Part shown: one piece after another, positions 1,795 through 59,006 of the stretch
Layout: every line of letters begins with the position of its first letter
How positions within the stretch are numbered: the first letter of the stretch is position 1
Assembly (NCBI GenBank): GCA_012401045.1
Contig: GCA_012401045.1_4704.2
Source of the DNA: a phage
Reading direction: 5' to 3' (one strand)
DNA: 64,000 nucleotides
Made by a program: the position numbers and the translations under genes
Notes under the pieces: generated by a model
Database searches by the model: none
The model's input: only the letters and a program-made list of their open reading frames with translations
What the model was told of the DNA's origin: nothing

Positions 1795-1883
1795 TATCAC
1801 GGTGCCGGATGAATGTCCGGTGCAATGAAACCATCCGCAACGTTGTCATCAAGAATATCATCCAACGAAGCAGCTACGGTAGT

Positions 1884-4106
1884 TCAGTTAGTCTGAACCG
1901 GCAGCTTGATGTTTTCAGTGTAGACCTTACGCAGGTTCACAACGTTAATCAGACCCAGCAGCGGGCAGTTGTTAACGAAGCGGCAGCGCGGCTGAACCAT
2001 GGTTTCTTTAGAAACCTGACCGTTACGGGTAACCTGAGCAACAGATACCAGTTCCGGTACGTACAGGAACATACCGAAGGTCAGCGGATCCGGAGAACCC
2101 TGGATACCACGAGACAGGGTCACGAAGATCTTATCGCGCAGCATGACGTTCGGGTTATCTACAACCACGAAGTTGAAGCTTACACCGACGGTACGGAAAT
2201 CGCCATCGGTCTGCAGGAACTGCGGGATGTAGTTGTCAGTTGCTACTACGCAACGCGGTTTCTCATCGGCGTTGGAAGACAGCAGCTGCAGAGCTGGCTG
2301 ATAACCAGACTCGGAGTACATGCGGTATGCCATCTCACGAATCACGTTCATGATCGCAGCAGACACTTCAGCACGACGTTCTGCAGTGGTGGTACCCTGA
2401 ACAGATTTCTCCAGGTCCAGATTGATTTCTTCGAACCACGGACGGATCAGGTAACGACCGAAACCTTCGATCTGGATGTCACCGAACTGACGGAAGCGAG
2501 AGGTCGCAACCGCTTTCAGTGCGTCTTTGTAGCTGAACAGTTTCTCAACCATCAGGTTGTCGAAACGTGCGTTAGCAGCTTGGATCAGAACGTCCAGGTC
2601 AGCAGCGTTTTCTTCCCAATCCAGCGGACGAGGAATGGAGAACGGAGCCAGCAGGCCGATTGCGTAACGTTCTTGCTTCATGTTGAAGTCAAGGTGCTTA
2701 CCGCGTTCACGACGGTTGCTGTTGTTACGGCGGATACGCAGTTCGTAACCAACCAGTTTGAAGCTCAGGTCTTCAGCCAGTTGTTTGAACTCTTCGCTCT
2801 TACGCGGTTGTTCGATGTTGTCCTGATCAACCAGGCGATACAGTTCAGCGTTAGCGCCGTTAACACGCAGACCCGCTTTCTCTACGTTGGAAGAACCGTA
2901 AACTTCGATCGCCAGCTGAGCAGCAGATTTCGCATCGATGATGTCCTGCAGCGCTTCGGCTTTCGCACCTTTAACGTCTTTGGTGTTCTCATCAACGAAG
3001 ATGGAGTGGGTGTCGAACGCCAGGGTCATTTTGCGGAAGTCGCCTTCCAGGGATTTCTGGAAACCGTTGGTGATCAGACCAGATACGTCGAACGGTACGT
3101 AAGAGGTTTTGCTGTGCTTGGTAGATTTGATTTCCACCAGGATTTTGGTCAGCGTGATCTGGGCGTCCAGCGCGTCGGTGTTGTCGCTATAACCGTTAGC
3201 CAGGATGCTATCGTCTTCAGCGATACCGATCATGTCGATCAGTTTATCAACAGCCAGGTAAGACGTTTTATAAGTTACGCCTTTAATTTCGATGTCGCGC
3301 GGAGCAACGATAGCTTTGTCAACGAAGTACTGCGCGTTAGCATCGTCAGCACGATAGATCGGATGCAGATCGGTCACGTCGTTGGACAGAACGTCGTTGT
3401 ACATGAACGCATCCAGCAGCGGACGACGTACCCAATCAGCCGGAGTACCGTCGGCGTTACGACGCAGGTGGTTGAACACCAGCGGACGACGGAAAGATAC
3501 GTCGTAACCGATCTGGTTCGGAGCCAGAACGATGGTGTTGTACAGTTCGTTACCCATGCGGCTCAGACGAGAAGCCTTCACGTTGAACACAACGGAGTAC
3601 GGCATCATGTCACGCAGTTCTTTCTGGTCGTAGGACAGCTGAACCAGTTCTTCAGATTCGCAACCGCAGGAATCAGCAGCCATCATGACGAAGTTAGAGC
3701 TGTCAACTTCACGGCCAGACGGAGTGGTGCTGATGTTCATGGAACGTGCTTGTTTAGCATATTCCACCGGGTTACCATGAGCCAGCATGATCAGTGCTGC
3801 TGCACGAGCCTGCTGTGCGTTCATGGTGAACAGCTGTTCTTCAATACGCTGCTTCTCTTCCGGAGTGGTGGTTTCGAAGCCCAGCATGGACAGAACCGGT
3901 TCTTCTGCTTTACGGATGTCGCTGCTGAAGCTCTTAACATCCATTTCGTTAACCAGTTTGTCCATGGATTTGAAATCAACCTTAGAAGCAGATTCCATAG
4001 ACAGGAAGGTGTTCTCCAGACCTTTGTCTGCTGGTTTGCTACCATTAGCGGTCAGGAACTGGCGAGTGGCCGCGACCTGTTGGCTAAGAAGGGTTTTATC
4101 ATTCAT
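1884..4106 (-). CDS. putative major capsid protein (740 aa); tail sheath not excluded
   Basis: Long ORF with strongly host-optimal codon usage (cgt/ctg/ggt/aac/gaa), AAGGA RBS 8 nt before ATG, hairpin terminator downstream. Size matches major capsid proteins of phiKZ-like phages. No homology search run. Confidence 0.45.
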   Translation of the reverse strand: MNDKTLLSQQVAATRQFLTANGSKPADKGLENTFLSMESASKVDFKSMDKLVNEMDVKSFSSDIRKAEEPVLSMLGFETTTPEEKQRIEEQLFTMNAQQARAAALIMLAHGNPVEYAKQARSMNISTTPSGREVDSSNFVMMAADSCGCESEELVQLSYDQKELRDMMPYSVVFNVKASRLSRMGNELYNTIVLAPNQIGYDVSFRRPLVFNHLRRNADGTPADWVRRPLLDAFMYNDVLSNDVTDLHPIYRADDANAQYFVDKAIVAPRDIEIKGVTYKTSYLAVDKLIDMIGIAEDDSILANGYSDNTDALDAQITLTKILVEIKSTKHSKTSYVPFDVSGLITNGFQKSLEGDFRKMTLAFDTHSIFVDENTKDVKGAKAEALQDIIDAKSAAQLAIEVYGSSNVEKAGLRVNGANAELYRLVDQDNIEQPRKSEEFKQLAEDLSFKLVGYELRIRRNNSNRRERGKHLDFNMKQERYAIGLLAPFSIPRPLDWEENAADLDVLIQAANARFDNLMVEKLFSYKDALKAVATSRFRQFGDIQIEGFGRYLIRPWFEEINLDLEKSVQGTTTAERRAEVSAAIMNVIREMAYRMYSESGYQPALQLLSSNADEKPRCVVATDNYIPQFLQTDGDFRTVGVSFNFVVVDNPNVMLRDKIFVTLSRGIQGSPDPLTFGMFLYVPELVSVAQVTRNGQVSKETMVQPRCRFVNNCPLLGLINVVNLRKVYTENIKLPVQTN

Positions 4107-4255
4107 TGAAAGTATCCTTTACAGAATTAACTTATATAAGTCGGTCGATAGACCATAGCGTACACGCGTGCATGCGCCACTATAGTATCAGTAAACACTT
4201 ACCGTTATTGAGGTCGTGATACAACACTAAAAATGCCGCATAACTTTTCCCTACG

Positions 4256-6530: not shown

Positions 6531-6590
6531 AAAAAAAAAAAAAGATTGTACGGTTCCCTCCTCCAACCCGTAAGGGAAGGAGGAAGGTTT
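6531..6590. terminator. bidirectional intrinsic terminator (A13 run plus CCCTCCTCC...GGAGGAAGG hairpin) between convergent genes
   Basis: Hairpin flanked by a 13-nt A run on plus strand (T run for minus-strand transcripts). Confidence 0.7.
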
Positions 6591-32144: not shown

Positions 32145-32189
32145 GCATAACCCTCCTCCAACCCAACAGGGAAGGAGGAGGGAATATGC
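32145..32189. terminator. bidirectional hairpin terminator (CCCTCCTCC...GGAGGAGGG) between convergent genes
   Basis: Located between stop of 29136..32129 (+) and stop of 32192..34984 (-). Confidence 0.6.
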
Positions 32190-50760: not shown

Positions 50761-51234
50761 ATGCCAGTTTCATCCAAACCAAGAAAAAAATCCGTAGGAA
50801 ACCCTAAAGCTCAGGAAACAACAGCAATTCGTTGGGACGAGTTACGTGAACCTATCGAAAACTGCGAATTGTTATTGGGTACCCTGGGTGCGGCTATTTA
50901 CCAAGCGACGCAACCCTGTCGTTTACGATTAACCCAAAACAAACGTGATGAGTTCGTTGCGTTATCAACAAGCACGAATAAAGATCTGACCGAACTTCAA
51001 ACCGAGTTGACGACGATCAAGAACTCCATTACGCCGATGTACGGTAAAGAAGTTGATGAACAAAGTATTCTGTTACAGTACAACTACGGGATGTCGTTAA
51101 TGAACATCCTGGAACGCGCATCCGATATTCTGCGTCCTGACGTTGCACGTCTAAGCCAACTGCGTGTCGAAGGGATGGAGAACCAGATCCGATTCGCTAA
51201 CAGTGTTAAATCTCAAGGAGCCACCGAAGCATGA
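50761..51234 (+). CDS. hypothetical protein (157 aa)
   Basis: AGGAG RBS; stop overlaps next start (ATGA). Confidence 0.65.
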   Translation: MPVSSKPRKKSVGNPKAQETTAIRWDELREPIENCELLLGTLGAAIYQATQPCRLRLTQNKRDEFVALSTSTNKDLTELQTELTTIKNSITPMYGKEVDEQSILLQYNYGMSLMNILERASDILRPDVARLSQLRVEGMENQIRFANSVKSQGATEA

Positions 51235-52916
51235 GCGAACAAGAAAAAGAAGTCGTGACGAATCAGGAAGCCGTTGAGCGTTCAGAGTCGTCCGTTGAAA
51301 CTACGATTCCGGCAAGTTCCGAGCCGGTTGGTTCCGCACAGCAGGAAAGTAAAGACGAAGTCAGCACGACTAAAGAAGATGTAGTGGCTCCAGAAGCAAC
51401 CCGTGAAGAAGAACCATCACATCCACCACTAATCGATTTCTCGAAGGCGACGATACGTTTCCAATGCGAAGACATTCGTCCTAAGAGCCCGAAGAAAACA
51501 AAACGCCAGCCGTTGGTGTTACCGCTGTATTCTCCACGTGTGCAGACAACGTATTACCGGGAATACATCAACGAAGCAATGGATACCGTGCAAGCCATTG
51601 TCGCTCAACGCGGTAAACCGACAGACGAACAATTTGATAAATTCAGTAAAGCGGTGGTGCAATCGGTTGCTGATGGACAATATCATCCGCGTGGCCCAGC
51701 TCACGATCGCGCCTTGGAACGTAAGGGCAGTCAGTGGACTAACGTACCCGTAGACTCATCGGGTGTTGGTCGCGTTATTCCTGGCATTCCACAACCGAAC
51801 CATATCCCTGATGATGTCGAAGCGCCGCTGACAGGAACCGATGCGATCTATTTTGCAATCCGCAATACGAAATCAGGTGCGCCTGCGGTAATGCCGTTAT
51901 GGCATAGCGGTATTAAGCTGCAGTTCAATCCGCCGTCAAATGAACGTGTTGCAATTATGCACGAACGTATTGCACGCGATAAAATCCTGGGTGGACGTGA
52001 TAGCACCGGTTTCCTGTTTTCGGCAACCTCGATTATCACCATGAAGCACGCAATCGAATTAGCGTTAGAATGCTGTTACATGGCCAACGTACCGAACCTG
52101 GATATCCAGCGTTTGAAAGACATTATCCCGGTTACCGATGTTCCGGCATTGTTGTTGAACGTGCTGGTAACCATGTATCCGTACGGATATCCTTACGTAC
52201 AGACCTGCTATCAGAATCCAGAAACCTGCGACTATCGTGTTGAAGATACCGTAAGCTTTGCGAAACTCTATCAAGTTGACAACAGCGCAATAACCAAACG
52301 TATGCGACAGATCATGACCGAAGGTCCGGTCATGACGGATGAACTTTTGCGTGAGTATGCAAACGAACTGGGTGAAACAAACTCCCGTACGCTGGATCTG
52401 TCCGACAACGGTTCTGTTATCATTGAACTTGAAGTACCGAAGATCTCACGACAAATAGCCATGGGCGAACGCTGGTTAAGCGATACCCTGGAAGATCTGC
52501 GTGATATTCTATCGCGTCCGTCAATGACCGAAGAAGAGCGTGATCGTGTTATTCGTGAACGTCAGTTTTATAGCTGGATGCGTCAGTATGATGCGTGGAT
52601 CAAATCGATGCACGTGTCAGTAAACGGTACCATGCGTCGTGTAAGCGATGCAGATACGGCAACGGTATTAGCACAGCTGTCACGAGACAGCGACCTTCGT
52701 GAACGTTATATTGACGGGTTGATGCAATTCATCGGTGATTCGACGATTGCGCTCGCAGCGATGCCTGCCTGGAAATGTCCGAAATGTAATGCCGATATTG
52801 CTGACAATCTGCGTGACCAGAAATACTACGATCTGATTGCTTTGGATGTACCCCAGCTTTTTTTTACCCTAAACTCCGTCCAATCTCTTCAGGAGGGGAT
52901 GGACGCGGTATTCTAA
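51231..52916 (+). CDS. hypothetical protein (561 aa); possible -1 frameshift extension into the next ORF
   Basis: AAGGAG RBS. A T8 run at ~52858-52865 sits near the 3' end; the downstream ORF frame is open from 52817. Confidence 0.7.
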   Translation: MSEQEKEVVTNQEAVERSESSVETTIPASSEPVGSAQQESKDEVSTTKEDVVAPEATREEEPSHPPLIDFSKATIRFQCEDIRPKSPKKTKRQPLVLPLYSPRVQTTYYREYINEAMDTVQAIVAQRGKPTDEQFDKFSKAVVQSVADGQYHPRGPAHDRALERKGSQWTNVPVDSSGVGRVIPGIPQPNHIPDDVEAPLTGTDAIYFAIRNTKSGAPAVMPLWHSGIKLQFNPPSNERVAIMHERIARDKILGGRDSTGFLFSATSIITMKHAIELALECCYMANVPNLDIQRLKDIIPVTDVPALLLNVLVTMYPYGYPYVQTCYQNPETCDYRVEDTVSFAKLYQVDNSAITKRMRQIMTEGPVMTDELLREYANELGETNSRTLDLSDNGSVIIELEVPKISRQIAMGERWLSDTLEDLRDILSRPSMTEEERDRVIRERQFYSWMRQYDAWIKSMHVSVNGTMRRVSDADTATVLAQLSRDSDLRERYIDGLMQFIGDSTIALAAMPAWKCPKCNADIADNLRDQKYYDLIALDVPQLFFTLNSVQSLQEGMDAVF

Positions 52917-53008
52917 TCGATCCGCGATACGGGTTACATGACGGACAACTTGTTCGTAATGATGAAAAAATCTGGGAACTGCTGTTAGCGCGTAAAGGCG
53001 ACGGCGGC

Positions 53009-53338
53009 ATGAAGCTGAACATCGAAATGGGTATTGCGTACGATACCATGTTTGGCTTGTACGATCGTGTTAACGAATGGACGCCGTTGAAATGGGTTGC
53101 TCAGCATCCCGCTGAAGATCCCTGGGACAGATTGGGGATTAAACCCTTAATCGAAGATTATGTCCGATTCGGTATTAAAGAGTTCATGACGCTGGATGCG
53201 TTTTTAAAAGCACCGTATCCTTACGCGCAAACGGTACTCAAAATCGCACAAGACGAACTGCGGAAACGTAGTGCGGTACTGGACGACGATGAGGACAAGT
53301 TACGACGAGAAGAAGAACGTTTACGAAACGGAAAATAA
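53009..53338 (+). CDS. hypothetical protein (109 aa) or 3' portion of a frameshift product
   Basis: ATG at 53009 has a weak RBS; its frame is open for ~190 nt upstream, overlapping the end of the 561-aa ORF. Confidence 0.5.
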   Translation: MKLNIEMGIAYDTMFGLYDRVNEWTPLKWVAQHPAEDPWDRLGIKPLIEDYVRFGIKEFMTLDAFLKAPYPYAQTVLKIAQDELRKRSAVLDDDEDKLRREEERLRNGK

Positions 53339-53339
53339 A

Positions 53340-53849
53340 ATGGCAAGATTTACCAGTTTGATTGGATTGGATATTTGGGAAACACCGGCTGACGTTCGGG
53401 TTATTCCTGTTAACACCGTCGGTGTGATGGGACGTGGTCTTGCCAAACAGGCAGCCGATCGTGTGCCCGGTCTTCTTGAAGCGTACCGTAAGCAATGTCA
53501 AGATGGGTTTAAGGTGGGCGAAGTCGTATCGTATCAGCAAGGCGAGAACGATCAGCTCACTTACGTGTTGTTTCCATCAAAATCGGATTGGCGTGAAAGA
53601 ACACGACGCGAGTATATCGTTAACGGTTTACTGGCGTTAAAAGCATGGTTACTGGAGCTTCAGTTCGAAAGAGACGGCTTCTCATATCGGCGTCCGGCTG
53701 AACCGCTGATCGTTGCAATTCCTCCGGTCGGTTCTGGTTGCGGTAATATCGGTTACGGACAATCCGAAACAATCCAGCCTCAATGGGTACGCGCACAAAT
53801 CAAACAGTATCTTGCCACCGTACCAAACGTTCATTTCTACTTGTTCTAA
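53340..53849 (+). CDS. macro-domain-like protein (ADP-ribose binding/processing; ~169 aa)
   Basis: Track ORF 53271..53849; ATG at 53340 directly follows upstream stop. VIPVNTVGVMGRGLAKQAA resembles the macro-domain glycine-rich loop; IPPVGSGCGNIGY resembles its second loop. Confidence 0.5.
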   Translation: MARFTSLIGLDIWETPADVRVIPVNTVGVMGRGLAKQAADRVPGLLEAYRKQCQDGFKVGEVVSYQQGENDQLTYVLFPSKSDWRERTRREYIVNGLLALKAWLLELQFERDGFSYRRPAEPLIVAIPPVGSGCGNIGYGQSETIQPQWVRAQIKQYLATVPNVHFYLF

Positions 53850-53859
53850 TGCAAAGGTA

Positions 53860-53905
53860 ACATAACCCTCCTCCAACCCGTAAGGGAAGGAGGAGGGCTT
53901 ATGCT
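53860..53905. terminator. bidirectional hairpin (CCCTCCTCC aacccgtaaggg AAGGAGGAGGG) between convergent genes
   Basis: Between stop of macro-domain gene (+) and stop of 53907..54281 (-). Confidence 0.6.
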
Positions 53906-58963: not shown

Positions 58964-59006
58964 GCCATAGCAGCTCCTCCAACCCGTCAGGGAAGGAGGA
59001 GCATAC
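58964..59006 (-). terminator. hairpin (GCTCCTCC aacccgtcaggg AAGGAGGAGC) downstream of lipoprotein gene
   Basis: Loop sequence identical or near-identical to other family members. Confidence 0.55.

Follow-up and report, generated by a model that had tools for sequence, protein, structure and literature searches.

Organization of the locus and its two reading frames

We analysed a 64,000-nucleotide (nt) stretch of phage DNA (contig GCA_012401045.1_4704.2 of assembly GCA_012401045.1, hereafter the window), with 96% identity to the chimallivirus Goslar, a jumbo phage of Escherichia that forms a nucleus. The present work concerns two neighbouring open reading frames (ORFs) of this window, one encoding a protein of 561 amino acids (aa) and the other lying downstream in the -1 frame. 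In Goslar both ORFs, gp081 and gp082, are annotated as 'hypothetical protein' with the same 92-nt gap between them, and the pair is equivalent to gp077 and gp076.4 of phiKZ. A virion RNA polymerase (RNAP) beta-subunit gene and a head-protein homologue are found upstream and a macro-domain gene downstream, while the stop codon of the immediately preceding 157-aa gene overlaps the start of the 561-aa ORF (ATGA). By profile search, the 561-aa protein matched PHROG 4585 (E = 2.6e-67) and the downstream ORF PHROG 12109 (E = 1.1e-8), both of 'unknown function'. Membership of the phiKZ gp077 family (PHROG 4585/8054) with a gp076.4-type extension is borne out by the profile match and by synteny with a gp078-like upstream gene at all loci. 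A metagenome contig (L031) encodes a 561-aa protein identical to that of the window.

The original prediction for this DNA, made from the letters alone, proposed that a programmed -1 frameshift at a run of eight T joins the two frames, and named a sequencing error in the homopolymer as the other possibility. The run is located at 52858-52865, as announced, and is the sole T8 within the window. In the frame of the 561-aa ORF it is read CTT(52857-59) TTT(52860-62) TTT(52863-65) ACC and, because of this codon register, the T_TTT_TTT heptamer corresponds exactly to 52859-52865. When the overlap of the two ORFs (52817-52916) was read directly, this heptamer was its only slippery motif of the X_XXY_YYZ/Z_ZZN type in the 0 frame. 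The -1 frame is preceded by a TGA (52814-16) and is indeed open from 52817 to 53338, that is over 173 codons up to the TAA at 53336-38. A -1 slip on the heptamer would give a protein of 545 + 157 = 702 aa, in agreement with the fusion of about 700 aa that was foreseen.

The earliest ATG, GTG or TTG codon of the -1 frame in the window is ATG 53009, for which a weak ribosome-binding site was claimed. The duplex of its upstream region with the anti-Shine-Dalgarno sequence was computed at -5.0 kcal/mol, to be compared with a median of -6.0 kcal/mol for the other gene starts (n = 45), 33 of which are equal or stronger. The ribosome-binding site of ATG 53009 is below average, yet present. Initiation of its own at this codon is possible and is not required. 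The features of the locus are collected in Table 1.

Table 1. Features of the proposed recoding locus, in coordinates of the window
Feature	Position	Strand	Support
Upstream 157-aa gene (equivalent of phiKZ gp078 / Goslar gp080), first of a conserved three-part module	50761..51234	+	Synteny, all loci examined
0-frame ORF, short form, 561 aa (Goslar gp081, phiKZ gp077, PHROG 4585)	51231..52916	+	
Near-invariant nucleotide island, 92 nt	52836..52927	+	13 Goslar-clade genomes
Putative slippery heptamer T_TTT_TTT; P-site Phe codon 52860-62, A-site Phe codon 52863-65	52859..52865	+	Conserved in 23 lineages
Predicted -1-frame extension YPKLRPISSGGDGRGILIDPRYGL..., 157 codons + TAA; with residues 1-545, the 702-aa long form	52865..53338	+	
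0-frame tail present only in the short form, TLNSVQSLQEGMDAVF + stop	52866..52916	+	
Candidate stimulatory structure, unproven: hairpin 1, 52875-52903 (stem UCCGUCC/GGAUGGA), and hairpin 2, 52904-52926 (CGCGG..CCGCG)	52875..52926	+	RNAfold
So-called intergenic gap, 92 nt, -1-frame coding sequence by its substitutions, no start codon	52917..53008	+	-1-synonymous differences, pN/pS
Stand-alone ORF as annotated (Goslar gp082, 109 aa, PHROG 12109), C-terminal two thirds of the extension	53009..53338	+	
Predicted tryptic peptides of the long form, Goslar type: YYDLIALDVPQLFFYPK (junction), LRPISSGGDGR, GILIDPR, YGLHDGQLVR, IWELLLAR			
Peptide of the short-form tail: …FFTLNSVQSLQEGMDAVF; phiKZ counterpart stretch of the extension: ...MLSTFFYFGGLEVKPDGVVNDLR			

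Conservation of the site and coding constraint in the -1 frame

We compared 26 loci from 23 lineages, using the genome records of 21 divergent phages and 4 contigs of the Goslar clade; the records were those of phiKZ, 201phi2-1, Noxifer, Phabio, PS119XW, D6, Eowyn, RAY, EarlPhillipIV, SA002, 2050HW, Totoro, FBKp24, RSL2, RP12, LucasX, Xoo-sp14, three Vibrio phages and the Bacillus phage AgentSmith. At all 26 loci the downstream ORF occupies the -1 frame and, followed backwards past the stop of the 0 frame, stays open as far as a Phe-Phe site. The +1 frame is closed (3-70 aa) everywhere but in RSL2 (98 aa). The divergent lineages share only 20-25% aa identity, with hosts from Pseudomonas to Bacillus. 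The comparison of homologues that the original prediction recommended found the slippery site in all 23 divergent lineages, at a homologous codon pair. A tblastn search with the 702-aa fusion returned 159 phage records; most alignments stop at residue 545, that is at the slip site, and several records show a second alignment piece over the second annotated coding sequence (CDS). Across the family the -1 extension is alignable as homologous from the FFY junction to its end, and it contains conserved motifs upstream of the first canonical start, e.g. G(H/Y)(I/V)L..FG(L/Y) and VVND.RYSRL.

The same three-gene module was observed in vB_BspM_AgentSmith, a 200-kb Bacillus phage (L006, 901-3053), with a U_UUU_UUA site. 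The recoded gene would therefore not be limited to phages of Gram-negative hosts.

Most lineages spell the site T_TTT_TTT; five have T_TTT_TTC, one (AgentSmith) has T_TTT_TTA, and four have N_TTT_TTY with a first base other than T. Its first Phe codon is TTT in 23 lineages out of 23, to be compared with 30% of TTT among the Phe codons elsewhere in these ORFs, which gives a joint P of about 1e-14 as a product of background frequencies with the lineages taken as independent. The base before the site is a T in 19 of the 23 lineages, for a background of about 27% (P ~4e-8). Xoo-sp14 uses TTT once and TTC 15 times in its ORF, the one TTT being at the site, and both TTT codons of RSL2 are at the site (TTT 2 versus TTC 18). 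Such a spelling argues that selection acts on the slippery codons at the synonymous level, beyond the amino acids that they encode.

The 0-frame tail after the site is also kept, with 8-37 codons and a similar FF(T)L..Q(R/K).. pattern in all lineages, and both products therefore appear to be maintained. It reaches 37 codons in the Serratia phages 2050HW and Totoro and in the Klebsiella phage FBKp24, as compared with 8-21 codons elsewhere, which makes a dual-coding overlap of more than 110 nt.

The entry into the -1 frame was then considered. Across the lineages its earliest canonical start lies 8-87 codons 3' of the site (85 in phiKZ, 87 in AgentSmith). At 9 of the 26 loci a -1-frame stop is located 13 nt 5' of the first TTT of the slippery pair (L003 2853-2855, with matching positions in 8 others), so that in these nine lineages the -1 frame is not enterable from upstream of the site; in phiKZ this stop is a TGA that arises from the ATT GAC (Ile-Asp) of a conserved (I/L)D motif. 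The annotated downstream starts are inconsistent, from an overlap of 136 nt in RAY to a gap of 218 nt in phiKZ.

These data bear on the simplest reading of the annotation, namely that there are two independent genes, the downstream protein being made only from ATG 53009 or from a non-canonical ATT at 52910 after the Shine-Dalgarno-like sequence AGGAGGGG, and the T-run being an incidental pair of Phe codons. Two CDSs are annotated in every GenBank record inspected, the annotation of T4 gene 26 includes an internal product 26', the Shine-Dalgarno match of ATG 53009 is weak but present (-5.0 kcal/mol), and ATT 52910 is preceded by a strong Shine-Dalgarno-like sequence (-10.8 kcal/mol). However, use of the scattered canonical starts would delete conserved residues, the annotators' choices of start disagree with one another as described above, the choice of TTT is conserved against the codon bias, and the gap 5' of 53009 is under purifying selection as -1-frame protein, as detailed below. 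We consider this reading very improbable. As a general explanation the ATT 52910 start was rejected: AGGAGG and ATT are some 13 nt apart, and neither the relatives of 54-55% identity nor any other lineage carries the motif. The original prediction had set against itself the case of homologues organised as independent genes with strong starts; we observed instead starts dispersed over 8-87 codons and a -1-frame homology beginning at the site.

We examined the nucleotide differences in the gap itself. The window and Goslar show five differences within 52917-53008, none of which changes an amino acid of the -1 frame. Over its 31 codons, the ratio of the proportions of non-synonymous and synonymous differences (pN/pS, Nei-Gojobori) among close relatives is 0.00-0.14, compared with 0.03-0.09 in the annotated ORF; the window and the Salmonella contig, for instance, differ by 10 synonymous and 4 non-synonymous changes. 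Dual coding predicts a lower pS in the 17-codon overlap with the 0-frame tail, and pS indeed drops there from about 0.5 to 0.07. The gap 52917-53008 yielded neither a promoter nor a terminator. Judged by these substitution patterns, the 'intergenic gap' evolves as -1-frame protein-coding sequence under purifying selection.

The possibility of a sequencing artefact or of gene decay was weighed with the same data. According to this explanation, a homopolymer error (true T9 or T6) divides what is really an ordinary gene of 700 aa, or the locus has recently decayed into a pseudogene; some sequencing platforms are error-prone at homopolymers, and one extra T would fuse the frames. But the T8 is exact in 14 independent Goslar-clade assemblies from different projects (isolate genome, IMG/VR contigs, metagenomes and a Salmonella assembly contig), which refutes a homopolymer sequencing error. 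Its carriers are Goslar, three IMG/VR contigs, seven metagenome contigs, the Salmonella Panama assembly contig and three Logan contigs, down to 54% aa identity, and the string TTTTTTTTACCCTAAACTCC is invariant across all of them. In addition, the frame break persists in distant relatives at 20-25% aa identity, which keep the two-frame layout with runs of T5-T8, the 0-frame tail 3' of the site is itself conserved, and our searches gave no uninterrupted homologue. As far as the comparative data reach, the artefact or decay reading is refuted, and we leave it next to no probability.

Among 1.84 billion representative proteins, the 157-aa extension had 13 matches, all of 107-158 aa and with no in-frame fusion. 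With the fusion or the family profile the same proteins gave 5 matches, all of 536-561 aa, in a word-indexed search that is insensitive and did not return the phiKZ-type proteins. A locus search with a family alignment of nine sequences found no conserved stretch of 7-10 columns, and the Goslar-clade alignment recovered close relatives only. No annotation of this frameshift was found in the records inspected and no paper describing it in the full-text literature, whose coverage leaves out most subscription journals.

Nature of the shift, RNA context and expression

Taken with the conservation of the site, the constraint on the -1 frame and the scattered starts, the claim of a programmed -1 frameshift at the T-run is supported, and we regard it as likely that the locus is one gene with two products, a short form of 561 aa and a long form of 702 aa, generated by programmed -1 ribosomal frameshifting. 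Most ribosomes would read CUU UUU UUU ACC in frame and terminate 16 codons further on, which would yield the short form. A minority would slip with two tRNA-Phe on UUU(52860-62) and UUU(52863-65), both tRNAs re-pairing one base back with UUU UUU (52859-64); UAC (52865-67) would then be decoded, followed by the rest of the 157 further codons, to give a long form that shares residues 1-545 with the short one. Such an arrangement, found in every chimallivirus lineage sampled, would set the proportion in which the two C-terminal isoforms of this conserved protein are made. We infer that ribosomes make the shift, with low to moderate efficiency, and that neither isoform is dispensable.

Efficient -1 motifs of E. 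coli include U_UU.U_UU.Y heptamers, and among tetramers only A_AA.G surpasses U_UU.C and U_UU.U (PMC4066793). In the window, RNAfold predicts downstream of the site the two hairpins of Table 1 (-25.1 kcal/mol, z = -2.2); hairpin 1 would begin 9 nt 3' of the heptamer and the loop of hairpin 2 would hold the 0-frame UAA. No upstream Shine-Dalgarno-like sequence is present at the slip site in the aligned loci, which were read directly.

We also looked at published proteomic data. In a liquid chromatography-tandem mass spectrometry (LC-MS/MS) analysis of a Goslar virion preparation, Table S4 gives gp081 with 24 peptides, 49% coverage and an estimated 15-35 copies per virion, and gp082 with one peptide and an estimated 2-5 copies (preprint 10.64898/2026.04.21.720040). 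The search database was the two-gene annotation. Since one gp082 peptide is listed, the -1 ORF is translated in Goslar. According to the same table, gp081 amounts to about 22 copies per virion, near the values of the virion RNAP subunit gp078 (~21) and of gp079 (~15), both encoded next to it (preprint 10.64898/2026.04.21.720040), and this hints at a low-copy packaged protein. Neither gp081 nor gp082 is among the 28 modelled Goslar virion proteins. In a study of the phiKZ-like phage Churi, the gp077 homologue was among the proteins detected early in infection. Among the entries of Goslar Table S4 that were examined, the upstream gp080 and the macro-domain protein gp083 do not appear (preprint 10.64898/2026.04.21.720040).

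Several points weigh against programmed ribosomal frameshifting as we propose it. The first concerns the site: Noxifer, PS119XW, Phabio and D6 have no T at position 1 of the heptamer, so that only a U_UUY tetramer-type slip, with a first-base mismatch in the P site, would operate there. These four lineages can be accounted for because U_UU.Y tetramers are shift-prone in E. coli (PMC4066793). The second concerns the RNA, for which no convincing ribosomal stimulator was found: with RNAalifold on seven Goslar-clade sequences both hairpins are recovered with no covariation (term +1.47) and with pairs broken in the relatives of 54-55% identity, and single-sequence folds of the 70 nt 3' of the site at the 26 loci gave no common fold, with z-scores from -2.8 to +1.3. 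The third concerns the proteins. Support for the trans-frame protein is indirect, consisting of one gp082 peptide from a two-gene search; the Shine-Dalgarno sequence of ATG 53009, weak but usable, may give a free 109-aa product too; and chimallin and PhuZ are also present in the Goslar preparation (preprint 10.64898/2026.04.21.720040), so that virion association and stoichiometry are not safely read from these data.

A last point against it is the length of the runs, since T8 is found at 13 of the 26 loci and T7 at most others, and an RNA polymerase stuttering on such a run would yield the same protein. This is the principal competing explanation: the phage or host polymerase would stutter on the A8 template and add one U, and the resulting U9 messenger RNA would encode the same 702-aa protein (LFFYPK...). 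Because the protein product is identical, the comparative evidence does not separate ribosomal from transcriptional slippage. Chimalliviruses transcribe with their own unusual multisubunit polymerases, which may favour polymerase stuttering, as may the absence of a convincing stimulator. UUUUUUU is, moreover, under-represented in all frames of E. coli genes, possibly through transcriptional slippage (PMC4066793). Yet 8 of the 26 loci have only T5 or T6 (among them Noxifer and PS119XW with T5, and pir03, sm033, Phabio, YongMS32 and D6 with T6), which is too short for the slippage known from bacterial-type polymerases. These need runs of about 9 or more, and T8 is below the efficient length for the E. 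coli enzyme. In the family, the runs range from T5 to T8 and the conserved feature is the register TTT_TTY with a preceding T, not the length of the run, which speaks, with the T5 and T6 loci, against polymerase stuttering as a mechanism common to the family. We therefore consider transcriptional slippage unlikely, while giving it more weight than any of the other alternatives.

Around the site, 13 Goslar-clade genomes share a near-invariant nucleotide island (52836-52927). In it, the number of variable sites per 15-nt bin is 1 and 0 just upstream and 0, 4, 0 and 1 downstream, for 3-7 elsewhere. The island takes in 30 nt 5' of the T-run and, on the other side, some 11 nt beyond the stop of the 0 frame, parts in which a single frame is coding. 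Dual coding does not account for this width, which exceeds the overlap of the two frames, and an extra constraint in cis is suggested; the island fits no canonical hairpin or pseudoknot model. One may speculate that recoding is a regulated switch and not a fixed low-level slip, the ratio of long to short form of a possibly virion-delivered Zn-binding protein shifting during infection. The island would then be a new kind of stimulator, read by ribosomes that carry chimallivirus ribosome-binding proteins (gp014 type) or by the phage RNA polymerase through programmed stuttering. We hold this extension of the model to be rather improbable.

The encoded proteins and their relation to known recoding systems

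The 561-aa protein has an acidic, low-complexity N-terminus. Four of its cysteines (C326, C333, C516 and C519) do not vary among nine lineages that share 20-25% identity and are suggestive of a Zn-binding site, and its residues 502-520 gave a sub-threshold match to a YgiT-type zinc finger. Nothing significant was found in Pfam or NCBIfam, all PHROG matches are of 'unknown function', and a sequence search of the PDB found no relative. The AlphaFold2 model of this protein, built from a five-sequence alignment, is uninformative, with a predicted local distance difference test score (pLDDT) of 33. The extension was modelled as helical with moderate confidence (pLDDT 68) and had no match among PDB folds (best E = 2.3); the long form would carry a mainly helical C-terminal domain. 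Some of the 561-aa homologues (AgentSmith_11, MJ359) are labelled 'baseplate hub (assembly) protein' in GenBank. When the family profile was compared by hhalign with T4 gp26, gp51 and gp27, the probabilities were 3.7%, 1.1% and 0.8%, with a match to the CxxC motif only, and we reject this label as unsupported. By analogy with lambda G/GT, the protein might be a low-copy virion-associated or ejected protein to which the long form adds an interaction domain, a guess that is weakly supported.

If our interpretation is right, the pair of 'hypothetical proteins' and the odd gap between them are a single recoded gene, whose 702-aa form is missing from current protein databases. The correction of the annotation would cover more than 150 phage genomes, including those of phiKZ (gp077 + gp076.4), 201phi2-1 (gp136 + gp135), Goslar (gp081 + gp082) and RAY, and would also reach related Ralstonia, Vibrio, Xanthomonas and Bacillus phages (Chimalliviridae). 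Proteomic, knock-down, transposon sequencing (Tn-seq) and localisation studies that treat the ORFs separately would misread phenotypes. Until now, nearly all conserved frameshifts of phages have been linked to tail assembly chaperones; this would be a second family-wide case, in an unrelated and larger protein, and would point to a step that needs two isoforms at a set ratio. It would also provide a natural U_UUU_UUY site, apparently without a strong stimulator, in infected cells in which transcription and translation are spatially separated.

Other observations were made in the window. An ATG of the macro-domain gene lies at 53340, separated by a single base from the TAA (53336-38) that ends the extension; by the Goslar annotation this gene spans 53289-53849, and the start at 53289, 50 nt inside gp082, is probably placed 17 codons too far upstream. 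Four copies of a GC-rich hairpin of 28 nt, CCTCCTCCAACCCGTAAGGGAAGGAGGA, are present with 0-3 mismatches (6557-6584, 32152-32179, 53867-53894 and 58973-59000), where chance would give none. Its copies at 6557 and 53867 are intergenic and located at ORF ends, and the latter is annotated as a terminator in Goslar. Upstream (5') of the 6557 copy lies an intergenic A13 (6531-6543), the longest homopolymer of the window and the sole run longer than the T8. Two ORFs, 1809-4109 on the plus strand (766 aa) and 1884-4106 on the minus strand (740 aa), overlap almost completely in antisense, and one of them is presumably a shadow ORF.

The system may be compared with several known ones. T4 gene 26/26' and gp51 share with it the presence of two products per locus, and the baseplate-hub label of some 561-aa homologues, whereas the hhalign probabilities (0.8-3.7% with gp26, gp51 and gp27) set them apart. 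Vladimirov et al. (2022) reportedly proposed gene 26/26', which is annotated 'baseplate hub', as a T4-like tail assembly chaperone made without frameshifting. Programmed transcriptional slippage is exemplified by Thermus dnaX (A9), Shigella mxiE (T9) and potyvirus P3N-PIPO (GA6). These systems likewise have a homopolymer at the junction of overlapping frames and the same protein outcome, but the chimallivirus run is only 5-8 long and it is the codon register that is conserved.

HIV-1 gag-pol (U_UUU_UUA) and orfA-orfB of the IS3 family have a U-rich X_XXY_YYZ heptamer in common with the present locus, AgentSmith having exactly U_UUU_UUA. U_UU.U_UU.C is also among the heptamers found in insertion sequence (IS) elements (PMC4066793). 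Unlike the candidate hairpins described here, the stimulators of these systems are a defined downstream hairpin or pseudoknot, with in some IS an upstream Shine-Dalgarno-like element. In the tau/gamma pair of E. coli dnaX, as predicted here, the isoforms share the N-terminal body and differ in their C-termini through a -1 slip on a homopolymer-like heptamer. The shifted product of dnaX is the shorter one (immediate stop), is made with about 50% efficiency and depends on a Shine-Dalgarno-like element and a hairpin; in the chimallivirus gene, by contrast, the shifted product would be the longer one.

The closest parallel is that of lambda G/GT. In 2004, Xu, Hendrix and Duda reportedly described a conserved -1 frameshift in the tail assembly genes of long-tailed phages. 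As proposed here, a -1 slip near the 3' end of gene G extends a minority of the product at its C-terminus, the short form being the major one; the slip is kept across very divergent phages despite dissimilar sequences, the downstream ORF lacks a good start, and the join is routinely missed by annotators. The proteins are unrelated, with 561/702 aa here as compared with roughly 140/280, and the slippery motif is U_UUU_UUY here and G_GGA_AAG in lambda. The chimallivirus gene is not located between tail tube and tape-measure genes, its neighbours being the RNAP beta-subunit, head-protein homologue and macro-domain genes, and no similarity to tail assembly chaperones was found in Pfam, NCBIfam or annotated PHROG matches or in PDB sequences and folds. 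The resemblance to lambda G/GT is one of expression logic only.

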